This document shows positions 4,763 through 20,790 of a stretch of 33,354 nt of DNA, in pieces. Location: the IMG/VR virus record IMGVR_UViG_3300011437_000021, positions 1 through 33,354 of that record; one strand, 5' to 3'. Both the position numbers and the translations under genes were made by a program. Position 1 is the first letter of the stretch. Every line of letters starts with the position of its first letter. The DNA is from a virus (lineage: Duplodnaviria > Caudoviricetes). The notes beneath the pieces were generated by a model that made no database searches, was not told where the DNA came from, and was given only the letters and a program-made list of their open reading frames with translations.

Positions 4763-4837
4763 GCCGGGGTAGCTCAGTGGTAGAGCTGCTGTTTTGTAAA
4801 CAGCGGGTCGGGGGTTCGATCCCCTCCCCCGGCTCCA
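4763..4837 (+). tRNA. tRNA-Thr(UGU)
   Basis: GCCGGGG/CCCCGGC acceptor stem, GCTC-AGTGGTA-GAGC D arm, GCTGT-TTTGTAA-ACAGC anticodon arm, TTCGATC T loop, encoded CCA. Confidence 0.95.
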
Positions 4838-6833: not shown

Positions 6834-9050
6834 ATGCCTGAACCATACGAGCAGACGCCGGAGCAGCCCGAAGCAACGGCTGAAAAGGCTTCGGACAATG
6901 CCGCCGAGCCCGACTCTCCCACGATGTCGAAGAAGCAGATCGAGACGTATTTCAAGACGCGCGCGAAATCCTGCAAAACCGAGAAAGACAGCCTCATCCA
7001 GGAATGGCGCCGGAACGTCGAGCTGCGGATTGGTCATGTTGCCGAGCTGTACACGAACGGCTTCAACGTCCCGTTCGACGAGCTGCAGACCGAGCTGAAT
7101 CCTGATTGGTCGCTGACGAAGACGAAGACTGCGAACCTGTATTCGCAGGTGCCCACGGTACGCCTATCGAGTGAGAACAAAGCCTATCGTCCCGCGCTGC
7201 CGCCCTTCGCGAAGCAACTCAACTACGAGATCTCTCCGAAGCGCTCGAACATCGGCGCGGCCATGGAAGAGTGCCTCAACGACGTGGTCAATGCAGCCGG
7301 CATCTGCCTGATCTTCACCGGGTACATGGCCCGCTACAACGAGAAGCTGATTTCAGCCCTCGACGAGCAGACCATGGCGTTGTTTCCGCCTGAAATGCTC
7401 CAGACGCTGGCCGAAACCGAGGTTGAAGACGATTGGGACCCATCCCCGGAGAACCTGGAGCCGATGCTGGCTCAGTTTCAACTGCCGATGAAGCGCACGC
7501 ACGAGGTCGTGTCGGATCGCATCTTCACGCGGCGGATTTCGCCGGTCGATGGGCTCTGGCCGGCTGACTTTACCGGTTCCGACTTCAACGAAGCCGACTT
7601 TGCCGGCTACACGGGCAAACTGTCGTGGGCGGAAGCGAAACTGGAATTCAAGCTGCAAGACGGGCAGTACGATTCGGTAGTCAGCGACAGTGCCGAGGCC
7701 CAGGACAAGACCCTGCGCTCAAACTGGGAGCGCGCCGGGCTCGCGGACACGAAAAAGGTTAAGTTCGACGACATTTACTACTGGCGATATCGTGTCGATC
7801 CCGACGAAAAGTCGCTCGACTGCATCTGGCGCATCGTCTACGTCGAAGGGTTGGACGAGCCGGCGATTCACGAACCGTGGAAGGGCCAGCAGAAGGTCAG
7901 CTTCGACGACGAGAACCCCGAAGCCGGCCACTATTACATCGGGAACACGCGCTTTCCTGTTCAGTTTTGCACACTGACGTACATCACGGACAATCCGATT
8001 CCGCCCTCGGACAGCAGCGCCGGTCGCCCGCAAGTCAACGATCTGCGCCGCTCGCGCCGCGATATGTTCAACAATCGCGCGCACTCAGTGCCCATCCGCT
8101 GGTTCGACGTGAACCGTATCGACCAGACCATCCAGACGATGCTCATGCGCGGCACTTGGCAGGGCATGATTCCGACGAACGGCGACGGCTCCCGAGCGAT
8201 TGGTGAGATCGCGCGCGCCTCGTACCCGGGCGAGAACTTGTCATTCGATCAGCAGGCGATGCAGGACCTGCATGACTCGTGGCAGCTGAGCCCGCAGCAG
8301 ATTTCAGGCGCCGACCAGTCGGGTACAGCTACTGCGGCAAACATCAGCCAGCAGAACTTCGCCACGCGCATGGGCCAGGAACGCGGACGAGTCGCGAAAT
8401 TCTTCCTCAACGTGTGCGAGCTGGTCGCCGGCTACCTGGTCCTCTACTCGGACTTCCCCATCCTCACGCCCGAGGAAAAGGAAGCGATGGAGGGTGCCTG
8501 GGACAACAAGCGCATCACCCAGAACCTCGCATTCAAGATTTTGCCCGATACGCAGATCGTTCTCGACTCGAATTCGCGTATCCAGATGTTGACGAACTTC
8601 CTCAACATCACCGTCAAGTCGGGTTTCATCAATCCGAAGCCGATCATTGTCGAAATCGCCGAGCTGAGTGGCATCGACCCGACCGAAGTGGTTGTTGATC
8701 CGACCCCGCCGGTTCCCGAGCCTCCGTTCAAGTTTTCGTTCAGCGGCAAGGACGACCTGACCAACGTCCTGGTGCTGGCGACGTTCATCGCGAAGGGTGA
8801 ACCGCCGACCATCGAGCAGATCAAGCAAGCGAAGACGCTTATTGTCGAGACCGGCACCTTGCCGACCCTCGAAGAGATGCCCGAGGCTCAACAGCCCCCG
8901 GCAGGCCCAGAAGGGGGTGAGCCGCCTCCTCCCGGCGAGCCCCCACCGGGCTCTGAACCGATGCCTGTTCCGCAAGGCGGCTCGGACGCGAATGAATCAT
9001 GGCATACCGCTGACAAGATTGCGAAGAGGAGTCGGGACACGGAAGCCTAA
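6834..9050 (+). CDS. portal protein
   Basis: 738 aa directly after TerL; TATAANI motif typical of P22-like portals; Pro/Glu-rich tail; AGGAG RBS. Confidence 0.8.
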   Translation: MPEPYEQTPEQPEATAEKASDNAAEPDSPTMSKKQIETYFKTRAKSCKTEKDSLIQEWRRNVELRIGHVAELYTNGFNVPFDELQTELNPDWSLTKTKTANLYSQVPTVRLSSENKAYRPALPPFAKQLNYEISPKRSNIGAAMEECLNDVVNAAGICLIFTGYMARYNEKLISALDEQTMALFPPEMLQTLAETEVEDDWDPSPENLEPMLAQFQLPMKRTHEVVSDRIFTRRISPVDGLWPADFTGSDFNEADFAGYTGKLSWAEAKLEFKLQDGQYDSVVSDSAEAQDKTLRSNWERAGLADTKKVKFDDIYYWRYRVDPDEKSLDCIWRIVYVEGLDEPAIHEPWKGQQKVSFDDENPEAGHYYIGNTRFPVQFCTLTYITDNPIPPSDSSAGRPQVNDLRRSRRDMFNNRAHSVPIRWFDVNRIDQTIQTMLMRGTWQGMIPTNGDGSRAIGEIARASYPGENLSFDQQAMQDLHDSWQLSPQQISGADQSGTATAANISQQNFATRMGQERGRVAKFFLNVCELVAGYLVLYSDFPILTPEEKEAMEGAWDNKRITQNLAFKILPDTQIVLDSNSRIQMLTNFLNITVKSGFINPKPIIVEIAELSGIDPTEVVVDPTPPVPEPPFKFSFSGKDDLTNVLVLATFIAKGEPPTIEQIKQAKTLIVETGTLPTLEEMPEAQQPPAGPEGGEPPPPGEPPPGSEPMPVPQGGSDANESWHTADKIAKRSRDTEA

Positions 9051-9074
9051 CAGAAGCCAGAGGAGGGTAGCTAT

Positions 9075-9332
9075 ACGCCAATGTTTGAGTACAAATGTGA
9101 TACATGCGAACGCCCCGAGGAGCGCTACTTTGCGACCCTCGCCGAGCGCGACAAGTTCGAGGAGCATGGCGCTAAGCCGTGCAAACCGGGCGCGAACCTC
9201 ATCAACCGGAAGTGTGCCGGCACGATGAAACGCCAGCTCTCGGCGTCGAACTTCAAAGTCAACGGCTACTGTGCGGCCAACGGCTACGAATTCAACGGGA
9301 CGCAGACTATTCACAACAAAGGGTTGAAGTAA
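9075..9332 (+). CDS. FmdB-family zinc-ribbon protein (start ACG 9075 or ATG 9081)
   Basis: (M)PMFEYKCDTC...C...C.GTMKRQLSASNFKVNG matches the FmdB MP.YEY.C pattern; AGGAGG RBS 8 nt before ACG. Confidence 0.75.
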   Translation, partial: TPMFEYKCDTCERPEERYFATLAERDKFEEHGAKPCKPGANLINRKCAGTMKRQLSASNFKVNGYCAANGYEFNGTQTIHNKGLK

Positions 9333-9740
9333 ATGGCGGAACGTCTTGATGGTAAGCCTCGACGAGGGTGGACCAAGCCCGGAAGAGAAGCGGTTAAACA
9401 TCCTACGATCTTAGACATTGCATGGGTCGCAGGGGTATTTGAGGGTGAAGGGTCTGTGAGCGCCCCGCACGGTAGTCGAGGGTCGATGACTGCTACCCTA
9501 GTTCAAAAAGACCTGTGGCTGTTAGACAGAGTGGTAGAATTGTTTGGCGGCCACTACTACCTTTCAGGCGGATATACCACAAAAACTAATTCTTCCGGCA
9601 AGTCTACAGTGTGTGGACGATGGGAGATAACAGGGCCTAGAGCACGAGGCTTTGTATTCACAATTTTTTCCTTTCTATCGCCGCGCAGAAGGGCCCAAAT
9701 TAAGGCGGCACTGGGGGGTAATACCGTTGCCAATGTATGA
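9333..9740 (+). CDS. LAGLIDADG homing endonuclease (single motif, free-standing)
   Basis: DIAWVAGVFEGEGSV motif; A/T-ending codons unlike flanking genes. Confidence 0.8.
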   Translation: MAERLDGKPRRGWTKPGREAVKHPTILDIAWVAGVFEGEGSVSAPHGSRGSMTATLVQKDLWLLDRVVELFGGHYYLSGGYTTKTNSSGKSTVCGRWEITGPRARGFVFTIFSFLSPRRRAQIKAALGGNTVANV

Positions 9741-10062
9741 TCGACGCTGTGACACGTGCGAACAGGTCAAGCTGGATTGTTGGGAGCCTATTGAGCACCC
9801 GAACCCAGCCTGCGATCTGTCGCCCGCGTGTACAGGCACCCTCGAACGTGTCTATCTTCCGACGAATCGTGAACAGATTATCGGCGACGAGATCGATGTC
9901 ACCATCAAGCATGCTTTGTGTCACCCGGATGGGACACCCCGGCGATTTCGAAGCCGGGCAGAGTTGAGGCGAGCTGAACAGGCCGCCGGGTACACAAATT
10001 ACGTGCGCCACCTTGGAACCAAAGGCGGCGACAAGTCGAAGCACACATCGCGTTGGACGTAA
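9727..10062 (+). CDS. FmdB-like zinc-ribbon protein (TTG start)
   Basis: GGGGGGT RBS then TTG CCA ATG TAT: (M)PMYDRRCDTC...C....C.G.LERVY. Confidence 0.7.
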   Translation: MPMYDRRCDTCEQVKLDCWEPIEHPNPACDLSPACTGTLERVYLPTNREQIIGDEIDVTIKHALCHPDGTPRRFRSRAELRRAEQAAGYTNYVRHLGTKGGDKSKHTSRWT

Positions 10063-10112
10063 GACAATCGGAGGAGGCAATTTCGCATTCCTCGCGTCAG
10101 TAGGAGCACATC

Positions 10113-11261
10113 ATGTCAGACGAACTTACGGCAGTTATTGCAGGCGCGTTCGCCGATGCAGGCGGCGGCGACTCGGGAGACAGCGGAGCCGACTCCGGCG
10201 ATGTAGACACCGGAGCAGACAATTCTGAGGACATTTCCTCGGACACTTCCTCAGACGAATCCTCGGAAACCCCTGAAGACATAGAAGATAGCTCCGAAGC
10301 CAGTGCGGATACTTCCGAGGACACTGGTGGGGAGCCAGTTGTTGAAGAGGAGCCCGTCGAGGAGGAGCCGGTCGCTGAGAAGACCCAGCTCGAACAGGAT
10401 CTCGAAGAGCTGGGCCTGCGCGACCCGAAGCCGGGCGAGCGGATCAACAAAATTCCTCAGCCCCGCGTCAAGAAGATGGTCGAGAACTACGGGAAGAAGG
10501 TCGAGGCCCGGTTTCAGGGCGAAATCTCGAATCTCAGGGCCGACAACATGCGCCTCTCGCGCTCGGCCCAGACCATGAAGAACATCGACAAGCTGATCGA
10601 CTCGGGCGAGGCCGGCGTCGACCGCTTCATGACCCTGCTCTCGACGATGCACCCGGGCAAGTTCGACAAGTATGTGGGGAACGCCAAGGGTGCCCCGGCG
10701 GCCGGGAAAGCTGCCAAAGCAGCAGGATCGGCAGCAGATTCAGTCGTCGGACCCCGTCCGCAGCCCGACGTCACTTTCGAGGATAAGTCGAAGGGCTATT
10801 CGCCCGAGCAGCACGACAAGCTGCTCGACTGGGTGGCGGCCAAGGCTCGGGAAGAAGCCATCGTAGACATGGACGCGCGCATGGAGGCCAAATACGGCAA
10901 GATCGCCAAAGACTACGACCAGCGGGAAGCCTTCAACGAAGAGCTGCCGAAGGTCCAGGCGGTCATCCAAGGCGTCCATGAGACCTGGGGCAAGGACCTG
11001 GTCGAGAAGCACGAGGACACCATCGTGGCCCTCATGCAGCAGTACCCGGATATGCCGACAGCTGAAGCCGTAGCGCGTGTCCTGGTGCCCCTGGTCCGTG
11101 CCGACCGCAACAAGATGCGTACTGGCTTGATCAAGGAAACCAAGACCAGAACAGCGGCTGCTGCAAAAGTCGTGCCAGGCGGTGCGGCGAAGGATACGAA
11201 CGAGGCGAAGACCCTCGACGACGTCATTCGCCAGAGCATTCGTCGGGCGGGCATCAAGTAA
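10113..11261 (+). CDS. capsid scaffolding protein
   Basis: Very acidic disordered N-terminus, helical core, position between portal and capsid; AGGAG RBS. Confidence 0.7.
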   Translation: MSDELTAVIAGAFADAGGGDSGDSGADSGDVDTGADNSEDISSDTSSDESSETPEDIEDSSEASADTSEDTGGEPVVEEEPVEEEPVAEKTQLEQDLEELGLRDPKPGERINKIPQPRVKKMVENYGKKVEARFQGEISNLRADNMRLSRSAQTMKNIDKLIDSGEAGVDRFMTLLSTMHPGKFDKYVGNAKGAPAAGKAAKAAGSAADSVVGPRPQPDVTFEDKSKGYSPEQHDKLLDWVAAKAREEAIVDMDARMEAKYGKIAKDYDQREAFNEELPKVQAVIQGVHETWGKDLVEKHEDTIVALMQQYPDMPTAEAVARVLVPLVRADRNKMRTGLIKETKTRTAAAAKVVPGGAAKDTNEAKTLDDVIRQSIRRAGIK

Positions 11262-11284
11262 GGCATACATCTTGCAGGAGGGGC

Positions 11285-11314
11285 TTGACACCATTCAGGC
11301 CCTTCCTGCATAAT
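11285..11314 (+). promoter_or_regulatory. sigma70-type promoter embedded in an inverted repeat
   Basis: TTGACA 11285-11290, 18 nt spacer, CATAAT 11309-11314; IR TGCAGGAGGGGCTTGA / TCAGGCCCTTCCTGCA spans 11273-11310. Confidence 0.6.
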
Positions 11315-11364
11315 CACTGTGTCGACTGACCCTACGTTAATGGGTTTTACGGAGTAACGCTCCT

Positions 11365-11871
11365 ATGGGAAAAATTGTTCTTTTAGGGCATGTGTTTGAT
11401 CGGTTAACTGTTACGGCAGAGGCTGGTCGAGACAATTTCGGTGAGGTTCTCTGGGCGTGTCGCTGTGCGTGTGGTGAAATACGAACCATCCGCTCTAGTG
11501 CCTTGAGAACTGGTAAACACAAAAGTTGTGGTTGCCTGAAAGCCGATAAGATTCGAGAACGATCTGTCACTCATAACGGTAGTCAAACGTCTGAGTATAG
11601 ATCGTATCGAGCAATGTTGCGCAGATGTTATGATCCTCGGCATCGCGCATATCCGTGGTATGGCGGGCGTGGTATTAAAGTCCACCAACTGTGGCGAGAG
11701 GATTTCTTGGTATTTTTCGTCGATTTAGGGCCCCGACCAGAAGGTTGGACTCTTGATCGCATAGATGCCGATCGCGACTACGAGCCGGGAAATTGTCGCT
11801 GGGCTCCGTGGTCCGTACAAGCAACAAATAAGCGACGACCCTCATACGCTCTACCTCTACTAAGCGTATAG
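11365..11871 (+). CDS. HNH homing endonuclease (free-standing)
   Basis: W.C.C.CG...KSCGC N-terminal module, YGGRGIKV, TLDRIDADRDYEPGNCRWA; AT-rich codons. Confidence 0.85.
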   Translation: MGKIVLLGHVFDRLTVTAEAGRDNFGEVLWACRCACGEIRTIRSSALRTGKHKSCGCLKADKIRERSVTHNGSQTSEYRSYRAMLRRCYDPRHRAYPWYGGRGIKVHQLWREDFLVFFVDLGPRPEGWTLDRIDADRDYEPGNCRWAPWSVQATNKRRPSYALPLLSV

Positions 11872-11872
11872 G

Positions 11873-11984
11873 ACCCTCTCAGGCTCTGGGTTAGTGAGCT
11901 GTTCAGTAGAGAACAGTGAACAGTTTCCCACTTATTAGACAGGATACTGTCAGGATAAGTGGTTAATCCAGAAAGAGTTAGGGT
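11873..11984 (+). ncRNA. structured 5' leader of the major capsid gene
   Basis: Nested stems ACCCT/AGGGT, TCTGGGTTAG/TTAATCCAGA, CTGTTC/GAACAG, CCACTTAT/ATAAGTGG, GACAG/CTGTC. Confidence 0.5.
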
Positions 11985-11990
11985 AGCTAT

Positions 11991-12923
11991 ATAGCTTTGA
12001 CAATCGGACAGGGAGTTGCCGTTTCCTATCCAGCCGTGCTGAACTTCAAGCGGAAAGCGGCCAATCAGTGGGTCGAGTCTGCGTTCCTGCGCGAACTGGA
12101 GCGGCAGAACGCGGTCGAACGCGCATCACTCGGCCCCACCATCGAAAAGACGCTGGACTACCAGCGCAACCCCGGCGCGGCGTTCCTGGCGACGGACCTG
12201 CAGCCGACCAGCATGGCGAAGACCGAAGTGCTGACGGCTGCGTCGTACGACGTCGCTGAAATCTCCGTCCCCATCGTTTGGTCGAAGAAAGACGAAGTCC
12301 AGAACCCGACTGAGAATCAGAAGATTGCACTCGTGAAGGCGCTGCTGTCGAACGCTATCGACTCGCACGACGACCTGATCGAGCAGTACATCTTCGCAAC
12401 CTCGACCAACGGCTTCCTCGGACTCGACACCCACATCACCGATGCCGGCACCGGCTCGGACGGTGGGATCGACAGTTCGGTCAACCTCTGGTGGAGGAAT
12501 CAGCAGGCCACCTACGTGGATGACACGGACATCGAAGCCGCGTTCACCACGGTGTGGAATGCCTGCGCGAAGGGCAGCGGCTCCAACCTGCTCCCGACCC
12601 TGATGGTCAGCGACGGCGCGACCCAGGCCCTCTTCGAGGGGACACAGCAGGCGAATCAGCGCTACATCGACACCCAGGAGCTGAAAGCCGGTTTCAAGAT
12701 CCTTGGTTTCAAGACCGCGCGTTACGTGTTCAGCCAGTACGCAGACACGGACGTCAACTTCCTCAACTCGAAGAACTTCCAGCTCGTCGTGTCGAAGGAG
12801 TACTTCCGGGACCGGGGCGAAACGCAGGAGATCCCGAACGCGAACGGCTTCGTGTCGAAGATCTACTCGGCGCTCCAGACCTGCACCAACAACCGCAGCC
12901 GCCTTGGCGTTGCCCACGTGTGA
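11991..12923 (+). CDS. major capsid protein (start ATA 11991 or TTG 11997)
   Basis: About 310 aa after scaffold; strongly G/C-ending codons; motifs such as NGFLGL, GGID, WWRNQ and C-terminal TNNRSRLG resemble HK97-fold podovirus capsids. Confidence 0.85.
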   Translation: MALTIGQGVAVSYPAVLNFKRKAANQWVESAFLRELERQNAVERASLGPTIEKTLDYQRNPGAAFLATDLQPTSMAKTEVLTAASYDVAEISVPIVWSKKDEVQNPTENQKIALVKALLSNAIDSHDDLIEQYIFATSTNGFLGLDTHITDAGTGSDGGIDSSVNLWWRNQQATYVDDTDIEAAFTTVWNACAKGSGSNLLPTLMVSDGATQALFEGTQQANQRYIDTQELKAGFKILGFKTARYVFSQYADTDVNFLNSKNFQLVVSKEYFRDRGETQEIPNANGFVSKIYSALQTCTNNRSRLGVAHV

Positions 12924-19381: not shown

Positions 19382-19933
19382 ATGACCTTCACTGCTATTG
19401 TTGCCAAAGATCCAAACGTTGCTTGGGCTGCAGGTCTGTTTGAGGGAGAAGGGTGCTTCTCTTTTGGCAGTGGAGATACCGGCAACAGAAGCCTGCGGGC
19501 AATGATTACCATGACCGACCTAGATGTTTTGGAGAAGTTTCAATCTGTAGTGGGTATGGGGACTATTCGGAAAAGAAAATTGAACCCCCCACATAAGCAA
19601 CAGTGGTCGTGGTATATCAATTCTTTTCTAGAATTTCAATCGTTGGCTGTTATGTTGTGGCCTTGGTTATGTTCACGACGTCGAGCCAAATTACAAGAAC
19701 TTTTCGACCGATACGATGCGTTAGAGCCTGTCTCTCTAAAGTTGCGTATTGATAGAACAGCAGATATTAAAGCTGCACTCATGGCTTTATCTGCTGTACC
19801 TTTGTGGGGTAGACGTTGGAAACCTGGTAAAACCCAAAACGACATTGCTAAGGAGTTTGGAGTATCTCCCGGCTGTGTTTCTTTGATCAAACGTACTCTA
19901 TTAGGGGGTGCCTTACGACGTTCTCAGCCATAG
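19382..19933 (+). CDS. LAGLIDADG homing endonuclease with C-terminal HTH
   Basis: VAWAAGLFEGEGCF, MTDLDVLEKF...G.GTI, TQNDIAKEFGVSPGCVSLIK; AT-rich. Confidence 0.82.
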   Translation: MTFTAIVAKDPNVAWAAGLFEGEGCFSFGSGDTGNRSLRAMITMTDLDVLEKFQSVVGMGTIRKRKLNPPHKQQWSWYINSFLEFQSLAVMLWPWLCSRRRAKLQELFDRYDALEPVSLKLRIDRTADIKAALMALSAVPLWGRRWKPGKTQNDIAKEFGVSPGCVSLIKRTLLGGALRRSQP

Positions 19934-20790
19934 TCGCCATCGTCGCTGACCGGCTCAACCTTACGTCGGTTGCTGCACTCACCCGCATCGGCACAGAAGT
20001 CAACGACCGCTACCGAGAGGTCATGTCGGGAGTCGGACTGCAAACGTCTATCCGCACGACGATTTCGCAAGCGGTGACAGTCGGCAACAACCAGGTCGTA
20101 TTCAGTTGCCAGAAGATCTTCACGATCTTCGACAACTACGGCCGCTCGGTTACGTCGATCACGCGCTCGGGGACGACGGCCACGGTGACGACGGCTACGG
20201 ATCATGGGTACGCGACGGGTGTCTCGGTAAAAGTCGCAGGGGCTGTTGAAACCGCATACAACGGTGTTTTCGTCATTACCGTGACTGGTGATACTACGTT
20301 TACGTACACCGTGTCAGGGTCTCCGTCCACACCAGCCACTGGCACCATCACCGTCGAGCTGCTGCAAACGCAGTGGATTCTCGGCGAGCGCACGATGGAC
20401 GAGCTGCGGATGATGACGATTCAGTCCGATCCGCCTCAGAACTGGGCGCCTGCGAACATGAACGCGGACACGGTAACAGCCCAACTCGACGTCATTCCGT
20501 CGTCAGCGTACATCCTCAACGCCGATGTCGAGATCAACATTACCAATCTGGCCGGCTCGAACGTGCCCGGCTTCGCACAGGATTTCCACGATATCCTGGT
20601 GCGTGGGGCCTTGGCCGACGAGCTGATGAAGATGGAGAAATACAGCGAAGCAGAGACTCAGGAGGGTAAGTTTGAGAAGCGCTTGTCCGAACTGCGCCTC
20701 TACATCGCGAAGTCAAACGGCCTCGATATCTTCCAGGGTCGTAACGCAGGTATCGGCCTGGCCAACGGCTTTCACGGGCTGGTGAGCTAA
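19915..20790 (+). CDS. head-tail adaptor with inserted E1-FCCH-like domain (probable ACG start; first ATG 20023)
   Basis: Frame open from 19852; (M)TFSAIVAIVADRLNL...EVNDRYREV is an adaptor-like N-terminal helix; P.F..DFHDILV.GA C-terminal motif. Confidence 0.7.
   Translation, partial: TTFSAIVAIVADRLNLTSVAALTRIGTEVNDRYREVMSGVGLQTSIRTTISQAVTVGNNQVVFSCQKIFTIFDNYGRSVTSITRSGTTATVTTATDHGYATGVSVKVAGAVETAYNGVFVITVTGDTTFTYTVSGSPSTPATGTITVELLQTQWILGERTMDELRMMTIQSDPPQNWAPANMNADTVTAQLDVIPSSAYILNADVEINITNLAGSNVPGFAQDFHDILVRGALADELMKMEKYSEAETQEGKFEKRLSELRLYIAKSNGLDIFQGRNAGIGLANGFHGLVS

Follow-up and report, generated by a model that had tools for sequence, protein, structure and literature searches.

Initiation at codons other than AUG is treated in bacteria as a rare, gene-specific brake, set by the codon and by the strength of the Shine-Dalgarno (SD) sequence, and Escherichia coli infC and pcnB are SD-led examples. 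In Staphylococcus aureus, SD-led non-canonical starts have been reported for infC and cvfC1 (AUU) and for ccpN and citZ (AUA), according to the accessible parts of that study (PMC13009471). Quadruplet pairing of an mRNA U at position -1 with A37 of tRNA-fMet has been measured in E. coli libraries (accessible parts of PMC10018350). As far as the available parts of the sources cited in this text go, non-canonical starts behind an extended SD, discrimination by initiation factor 3 (IF3) and free-standing endonucleases are already described. Here we analyze the Caudoviricetes virus record IMGVR_UViG_3300011437_000021, whose whole 33,354-base stretch is called the window, and an element in it, AGGGTAGCTAT. 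With a probability of roughly 0.6, we read this element as a cis-acting start module used by host ribosomes, installed and spread mainly by homing endonucleases that displace the starts of genes essential to the phage.

Near-cognate starts and their shared spacer

The element AGGGTAGCTAT stands directly before ATA, ACG, ATC or ATT in two window genes and in about 30 genes of other, mostly unrelated uncultured phages. Within the window, the 12-mer AGGGTAGCTATA is present exactly at 9064-9075 (site 1, zinc-ribbon gene 1) and 11980-11991 (site 2, major capsid gene), and no other window site has fewer than three mismatches to it. As the original prediction had noted, its final A opens the codons ACG (9075) and ATA (11991), and a third, similar site, GGGTGCCTTACG, spans 19906-19917 (site 3). 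Assembly error was ruled out by identical contigs from other runs: site 1 is spanned with 0 differences by contigs of runs X2 and X4, site 2 by contigs of runs X2 and X3, and site 3, its ACG unchanged, by a contig of run X2; the contig of locus L081 is also identical at site 2. The repetition of a 12-mer is by itself at chance level, with 103 different repeated 12-mers in the window versus 41-86 in eight Markov simulations. The register is not chance, because both copies of AGGGTAGCTATA end at the codon aligned with Met1 of the relatives.

The near-cognate codons occupy the first-methionine position of their genes. In the window's family, sequence patterns placed 138 distinct starts in the capsid, zinc-ribbon and adaptor genes, comprising 115 ATG, 12 GTG or TTG, 9 ATA, ATC, ATT or ACG, and two ATG offset by one codon that were left out; genes with other N-termini are uncounted, and L093 (ATT) and L232 (ATC) were added by hand later, outside the 138. 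The homologous N-termini read MALTIGQ, MP(M/L)(F/Y)(D/E) and MTFTAIVAK. The 72 distinct capsid starts, 66 ATG, 2 GTG and 4 ATA or ATC, have their non-ATG members scattered on the capsid tree. The original prediction had pointed to a canonical codon 6 nucleotides (nt) downstream of each non-AUG start, and these codons are present in the window (ATG at 9081, TTG at 11997) but not conserved in relatives: the first canonical codons are at 7, 75, 11 and 37 in L004, L029, L047 and site 3, and the first one lies 21 codons downstream in L093. In G002, cultured coat homologs align from residue 1, 103 codons ahead of the first canonical codon. Since in several near-cognate cases 6 to 74 codons pass before a canonical one appears, the downstream ATG or TTG is simply codon 3 of the protein. 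The palindrome AGCTATATAGCT at 11985-11996 is likewise real but broken in relatives with ATC or ATT, and both features are incidental. Residue 2 aligns with profile position 2 in L299, L327 and L338, and an ATG twin of L311 exists in G003; these residue-2 or twin checks cover four scan loci, the other scan N-termini being plausible. The ATG twins L031 and G003 show an ATATC-ATG context, from which loss of the ATG would put the G003 spacing out of range. As a separate observation, codon 3 is TTA or TTG in all six non-ATG capsid alleles (window, L006, L029, L047, L049, L118) and in just 11 of 55 ATG capsid alleles, which hints at a shared, mobile 5' tract.

The spacer distinguishes these starts from ordinary ones. 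Family loci were picked by protein, the motif being unused in selection. GGT occupies positions -9 to -7 at 8 of 9 near-cognate and 6 of 115 ATG starts, T stands at -1 in 9 of 9 versus 14 of 115, and the pattern GGTA.C[CT]AT is found at 7 of 9 versus 0 of 115; the rows are related, representing by our estimate about four or five independent lineages, and p-values are inflated. AGGTAAC was also noted as a frequent form of the ribosome site before ATG in family capsids (L032, L040, L045, L053, L055, L061, L085, L090 and others), and L045 carries AGGTAACTATC-ATG, from which the capsid form of the motif may descend.

Two scans extended the analysis to collections. The first viral scan used the motif plus ATH and S-C as its pattern and returned 51 loci, 27 of which open a reading frame (ORF) of at least 80 amino acids (aa) with an in-frame stop no more than 30 codons upstream; the others look like chance. 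Genes found include a P22-type coat, another capsid family, tape-measure, replication-initiator and tail genes. Because this pattern forced the codon, viral contigs were scanned a second time with AGGAGGGTAGCTAT alone, giving 114 loci and 94 distinct sites. At 43 of the 94 the final AT plus G forms the ATG of an ordinary gene. The codon directly after AGGAGGGTAGCTAT is ATC at 11 sites, ATT at 4, ATA at 1, ATG at 2 and ACG at none, and all 11 ATC codons open long ORFs (P of at least 11 ATC 3e-7 at 1 in 64); site 1 has the same layout as these 11 cases. In normal bacterial usage ATG starts outnumber ATC, so the excess of ATC over ATG behind one spacer, the reverse of that usage, ties the spacer to the codon. 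The 31 pooled cases comprise 25 ATC, 5 ATT and 1 ATA, with unrelated capsid, tape-measure and replication genes among them; GG at -13/-12, found in 24/31 and 21/31, is partly set by the search pattern. L309 probably entered the 31 by chance, having an in-frame ATG 21 codons farther upstream, and L482, a second degenerate site in G010 that opens just 11 codons, was scored as a miss. A loose scan judged by eye gave one to three convincing near-cognate starts per genome, nearly all with the motif. The motif is thus conserved in relatives and enriched at start positions, in keeping with the original prediction of a recognition element.

SD strength was assessed with the E. coli anti-SD as a stand-in, which may not be the host's. 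Duplex energies are -12.5 kcal/mol at site 1 and -13.0 kcal/mol at site 3, and near-cognate capsid sites range from -4.7 to -6.9 kcal/mol, the median of 65 ATG capsids being -6.4 kcal/mol. Extended pairing with 16S rRNA, which the original prediction had raised, was not seen at the capsid site with this anti-SD; as site 1 pairs strongly and site 2 weakly, such pairing does not explain the spacer.

Homing endonucleases, start capture and the capsid leader

A tie to homing endonucleases, absent from the original prediction, emerged from the genes upstream. The window carries three free-standing endonuclease genes, LAG1, HNH and LAG2, which are optional inserts between conserved genes, absent from most relatives, and each is followed by a non-ATG start. 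In 12 of 31 pooled cases and 0 of 20 controls, an endonuclease is the longest ORF upstream (p 0.0015); with six related coat cases counted as one, the figure for the cases is 7 of 26 (p 0.014). The controls have the same SD and spacer followed by ATG, and 2 of 22 lack an upstream ORF, hence n=20. Four nuclease types are involved (GIY-YIG, HNH, endonuclease VII and LAGLIDADG-like), and an HNH-like tail was recognized by eye upstream in L319. In the window's family an endonuclease lies directly upstream of 7 of the 9 near-cognate starts. At least 17 distinct insertions were counted there, followed by near-cognate starts in 8 cases, GTG or TTG in 3 and ATG in 6, the count being a lower bound because local profiles missed at least one GIY-YIG (L093). 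Homologs of the window's HNH occupy the same place in L006, L029/L030 and L049, where the capsid starts are all non-ATG, and LAG1 homologs lie upstream of ATT starts in L004 and L124. Two other optional capsid-leader nucleases, in L107 (7968-8528, endonuclease VII type) and L138 (8258-8947), share an N-terminal domain with the window's HNH and are followed by ATG.

Start capture is seen in L140/L141, L232, L004, L055 and the window's LAG2: some endonucleases have captured the neighbor's ribosome site together with its ATG and opening codons. In LAG2 the nine initial codons, MTFTAIVAK, are the captured adaptor start (the close homologs P0127, P0132 and P0134 begin so), and the adaptor restarts behind LAG2 from a recoded copy with ACG; L232 does likewise with ATC. 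LAG1 occupies the ATG position of zinc-ribbon gene 2. In the twins L140 and L141 the insertion lies exactly at the ATG and the endonuclease takes the old ribosome site, the new start still being ATG. In L093 a broken HNH tail precedes the exact 12-mer and ATT, and in L004 LAG1 and the motif lie ahead of the same gene type as at site 1, an arrangement which, with the L093 relic, makes a relic origin plausible for site 1. There the 24 nt between the portal-like stop and the start leave no room for an intron or endonuclease.

The starts also appear mobile. On a quick capsid tree (52 rows, at least 62% identity, first 25 residues removed), the non-ATG starts (5 of 52 rows) need 4 changes and have ATG sisters, including the near-identical L031 and L046. 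The capsid proteins of L006, with an HNH, and L047, without one, are identical; among the first 30 codons, synonymous differences affect 15 of the 27 that can be compared, and among later codons 18 of 281. This 5' concentration comes from one clear pair, other pairs being too diverged, and is consistent with a swapped 5' tract and a nuclease target in the first 30 codons.

In the window, the 120 nt from the HNH stop to the ATA fold into a predicted three-way junction, with fold z-scores of -4.9, -4.7 and -5.9 in the window, L029 and L006. In all three, the predicted basal stem starts at the HNH stop and pairs with the AGGGU ribosome site. A leader alignment has double-sided changes at 8 of 34 consensus pairs, in the inner helices; it comprises four sequences, two of them near-identical, and does not recover the basal stem. 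A ribosome stopping on HNH could open the leader stem. L047 has a similar stem and no upstream ORF. Masking of the SD as a general feature was rejected, with predicted accessibility of 0.32 in cases versus 0.29 in controls, and is confined to the capsid leader. Several further observations concern capsid leaders. Endonuclease-free leaders (L031 300-480, L047 5170-5365) hold multiple hairpins whose loops resemble GCGTAAC/GCGTTAC and which may form a leader RNA or protein-binding element not described before. The capsid genes of L016 (about 8900-9000) and L133 (8085-9001) are interrupted near the 5' end by what look by eye like group I introns. tRNA genes lie in the leaders of L118 (8815-8890), L122 (8571-8880) and L123 (7246-7641), and capsid-leader ARAGORN calls include TTA and TCA anticodons (stop-reading or degenerate).

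Explanations for the proposed start module

The motif is real and widespread, and chance, assembly error, splicing and editing do not explain it. A search of the window against Rfam found tRNA only and no intron at E<=1; splicing that restores an AUG was rejected for want of a ribozyme core, for the 24 nt at site 1 and for the varying letters at the 3' junction. RNA editing would hardly serve, as ACG, ATA, ATC and ATT would not all become AUG by one chemistry. A leaderless -10 box was dismissed on inspection, the end base of TANNNT being missing in the ATC, ATA and ACG versions. Specialized initiation is what survives of the recognition element originally predicted; a guide RNA, an editing enzyme and a phage-encoded protein found no support.

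In the reading we prefer, a start module spread by endonucleases, the module would have three parts: an SD core, a spacer of fixed sequence with U as its last base, and ATC, ATT, ATA or ACG as the near-cognate codon. The 30S subunit would bind the AGGAGG or AGGGU core, the spacer would bring the near-cognate codon to the P site, where the host's ribosome would decode it with ordinary initiator tRNA, the U at -1 probably adding a pair with A37 of tRNA-fMet. An endonuclease inserting at or near a start would have to supply its host gene with a new one; a near-cognate start and recoded first codons would avoid rebuilding the nuclease target, whereas an ATG would rebuild the original junction. The module would persist after endonuclease decay and be copied between genes, endonuclease-free sites such as site 1 being putative relics or copies. 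Sequence comparison directly shows where the codon lies, how specific the spacer is, the excess of endonucleases upstream and the capture of starts; that translation begins at the near-cognate codon, what each base does, any immunity and the spread of the module are what we infer from it.

Several observations weigh against this reading. Both collection scans fixed the spacer, leaving its range to 11 family cases, three of which deviate (L124, L232 and site 3). No endonuclease recognized by PHROG lies directly upstream in 19 of the 31 pooled cases, nor does one at site 1 or in L047/L082, and ATG follows six family endonucleases (L016, the second of L055, L107, L138, L141, L192). The motif was found near the nuclease stop in 0 of 80 LAG2-like loci, nearly all of other phage groups. 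L006 and L047 both use ATC, so the start codon is not an immunity mark in this pair, which weakens the target-avoidance step. The capsid SD at site 2 is weak (-4.7 kcal/mol) and, by prediction, base-paired, unexpected features for a protein made in abundance, and non-canonical starts in S. aureus yield about 10-30% of AUG output in the accessible parts of PMC13009471.

Tentatively, and as a possibility we rate well below even odds, an uncultured soil or sediment bacterial lineage may have dedicated, sequence-specific initiation at AUC, AUU, AUA and ACG keyed to GGGUAGCUAU; four unrelated nuclease types would have converged on it to target a codon that the gene cannot silently change, while their own capsid and tail genes still work.

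Enforced translational coupling appears unlikely; on this view the weak codon keeps new ribosomes from initiating, only those completing the endonuclease ORF translate the essential gene, and the endonuclease thus becomes hard to lose. It would fit the position of the endonuclease stop, which in L004, L055, L124, L232 and several other phages is the motif's own TAG, 4 nt ahead of the start, and the predicted capsid stem beginning at the HNH stop. However, an upstream ORF ends at the motif TAG in 12/31 cases versus 5/22 controls, no clear enrichment, the L047 leader is promoter-led and without an ORF, gaps of 122-230 nt separate the genes in L299, L315, L341 and L349, the L093 endonuclease tail is broken, and SD accessibility is alike in cases and controls.

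It is also unlikely that the codon is a selected brake or IF3 sensor tuning late-gene output, as in infC, cvfC1 and ccpN, with the endonuclease link secondary. Many cases lack an endonuclease, non-canonical starts are inhibited by IF3 (available parts of PMC2268962) and conserved weak starts are known in S. aureus (available parts of PMC13009471). Against this stand the patchiness of the start, with ATG in the sister capsids L031 and L046, the presence of only one to three sites per genome, major capsid genes among them, and the 12/31 versus 0/20 endonuclease enrichment, which a brake leaves unexplained.

A trans-acting factor licensing non-AUG starts (a host protein, a variant or modified initiator tRNA, a small RNA or a lineage-specific 16S feature) seems quite improbable. 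An identical 8-base spacer across unrelated genes, in loci of 37-68% GC, exceeds the needs of SD plus -1 U; ATC is far commoner than ATT and ATA (25, 5, 1); and the beginning of helix 45 in E. coli 16S rRNA agrees with the motif at 9 of 15 bases, a candidate lead. Yet no ORF is shared at E<1e-5 between the complete genomes G001 (62 kb, 43% GC) and G002 (42 kb, 64% GC), both of which carry the identical motif, and neither holds an exact antisense copy of it, contrary to the complementary small RNA once suggested; the antisense-guide search covers these two genomes, the window genome being probably partial. G002 has no tRNA, nor, among 60 loci scanned, do the fetched parts of L004, L006, L029, L047, L055, L093 and L232; L124 has tRNA-Ala only, and one of five other records has tRNAs (Met and Leu). 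On these scans a phage initiator tRNA was rejected as the general cause. In the window's tRNA-Thr(UGU) the first position of the acceptor stem is paired, as is typical of elongator tRNAs. This gene (4763-4837) lies right before a small-terminase-like gene, and its 5' end includes the motif-like GGGTAGCT, probably a coincidence; L036 and L037, whose capsid starts are ATG, carry a tRNA of this type too. One GTDB contig (L138) encodes a 49%-identical capsid, its genome being without the motif, and cultured phages match the window capsid at 22-29% only. Searches with 31 bases against annotated phages and plasmids gave matches only at E 7-10.

That the near-cognate codons are dead remains and translation begins at an ATG or TTG two codons downstream is very unlikely, for such a codon exists at sites 1 and 2, L006, L055 and L124 but is absent in L004, L029, L047, L093, site 3 and G002, 6-103 conserved residues would be lost, the downstream start at site 1 would be 14 nt from AGGAGG, and the spacer would be expected to lose its register with the near-cognate codon.

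Gene map and comparison with known systems

The record is probably partial, because relatives run about 46-58 kb. It encodes a terminase, a portal-like protein, two zinc-ribbon proteins, a scaffold-like protein, the major capsid protein and tail proteins, the portal, scaffold and tail labels coming from gene order (Table 1). The portal-like gene has no Pfam or PHROG match; its C-terminus is similar to that of the L006 counterpart. Relatives of zinc-ribbon gene 1 in L005 and L007 open ATG-CCG-ATG-TTC-GAG, and the L005 homolog matches PF09723 at E 1e-6, under the Pfam cut-off. Promoter boxes resembling that ahead of HNH also occur in L029 and L006, where the sequence of the hairpin predicted over the HNH ribosome site is kept as well; the hairpin alone lacks z-score support.

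Table 1 Features of the window around the three near-cognate starts
Feature	Position	Strand	Description
Terminase gene			PF04466 match
Portal-like gene	6834-9050	+	Stop codon 9048..9050, 24 nt before site 1
Site 1	9061..9077	+	AGGAGG + 8-nt spacer GTAGCTAT + ACG; full form of the module
Zinc-ribbon gene 1	9075..9332	+	Most likely ACG start, M-P-M-F-E-Y-K-C
LAG1	9333..9740	+	LAGLIDADG-like free-standing endonuclease; phrog_5046 E 2.5e-13
Zinc-ribbon gene 2 replacement start	9714..9729	+	GGGGGT, 7-nt spacer, TTG at 9727; within LAG1 3' end
Promoter-like site, sigma-70-type	11285..11314	+	TTGACA-18-CATAAT, upstream of HNH and capsid genes
Predicted hairpin	11351..11363	+	Would hide GGAG ribosome site of HNH gene
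HNH	11365..11871	+	Free-standing HNH endonuclease in capsid leader; phrog_374 E 3.5e-56
Structured capsid leader	11872..11984	+	Predicted three-way junction
Site 2	11980..11993	+	AGGGT + 6-nt spacer AGCTAT + ATA
Major capsid protein gene	11991..12923	+	Most likely ATA start, M-A-L-T-I-G-Q, 310 aa; phrog_9953 major head protein
LAG2	19382..19933	+	LAGLIDADG endonuclease, PF00961
Site 3	19905..19917	+	GGGGT + 5-nt spacer + ACG; looser module version inside LAG2 3' end
SU10-adaptor-like gene	19915..20790	+	Most likely ACG start; recoded copy of N-terminus

Public gene calls in the window are too short: the capsid protein is called at 295 or 308 aa rather than 310, the length of most homologs, and the adaptor at 255 rather than 291 aa, its close homologs being 289-295 aa long; a homolog matches PF24175. 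The motif offers a simple rule for correcting such calls. If the preferred reading, a start module spread by endonucleases, is true, the spacer sequence itself can decide whether a near-cognate codon works, and homing endonucleases can insert at gene starts without killing the gene; the module would be a natural 17-base test piece for the role of the spacer. A literature search, mostly of open papers and by title, returned nothing on the motif, a shared spacer or endonuclease-supplied non-AUG starts.

Set against the described systems, these starts resemble S. aureus infC, cvfC1 and ccpN in placing a near-cognate AUN codon at normal distance behind an SD, where gene callers miss it. In that type, as the accessible parts of the study describe it, the start is conserved in its gene family and the SD is extended, whereas here the start is patchy (4 of 72 capsid starts), one spacer recurs across unrelated genes, the capsid SD is weak and major capsid genes are included. 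The pairing of -1 U with A37 (accessible parts of PMC10018350) fits the U found at -1 in 9 of 9 cases here and accounts for one base only. The endonucleases resemble the seg and mob genes of T4-like phages, as described in the available parts of PMC2988022, in lying as GIY-YIG or HNH genes between conserved genes with a hairpin, predicted here, over the endonuclease ribosome site, and the intronless homing of that system in overlapping their neighbors and possibly in co-conversion of flanks. In the T4-like account, coupling limits the endonuclease itself and starts are AUG or GUG, and its available parts describe neither an endonuclease-supplied non-AUG start for a downstream gene nor a shared motif. 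New here is a probable form of non-AUG initiation with a shared spacer sequence and a strong tie to selfish nucleases.

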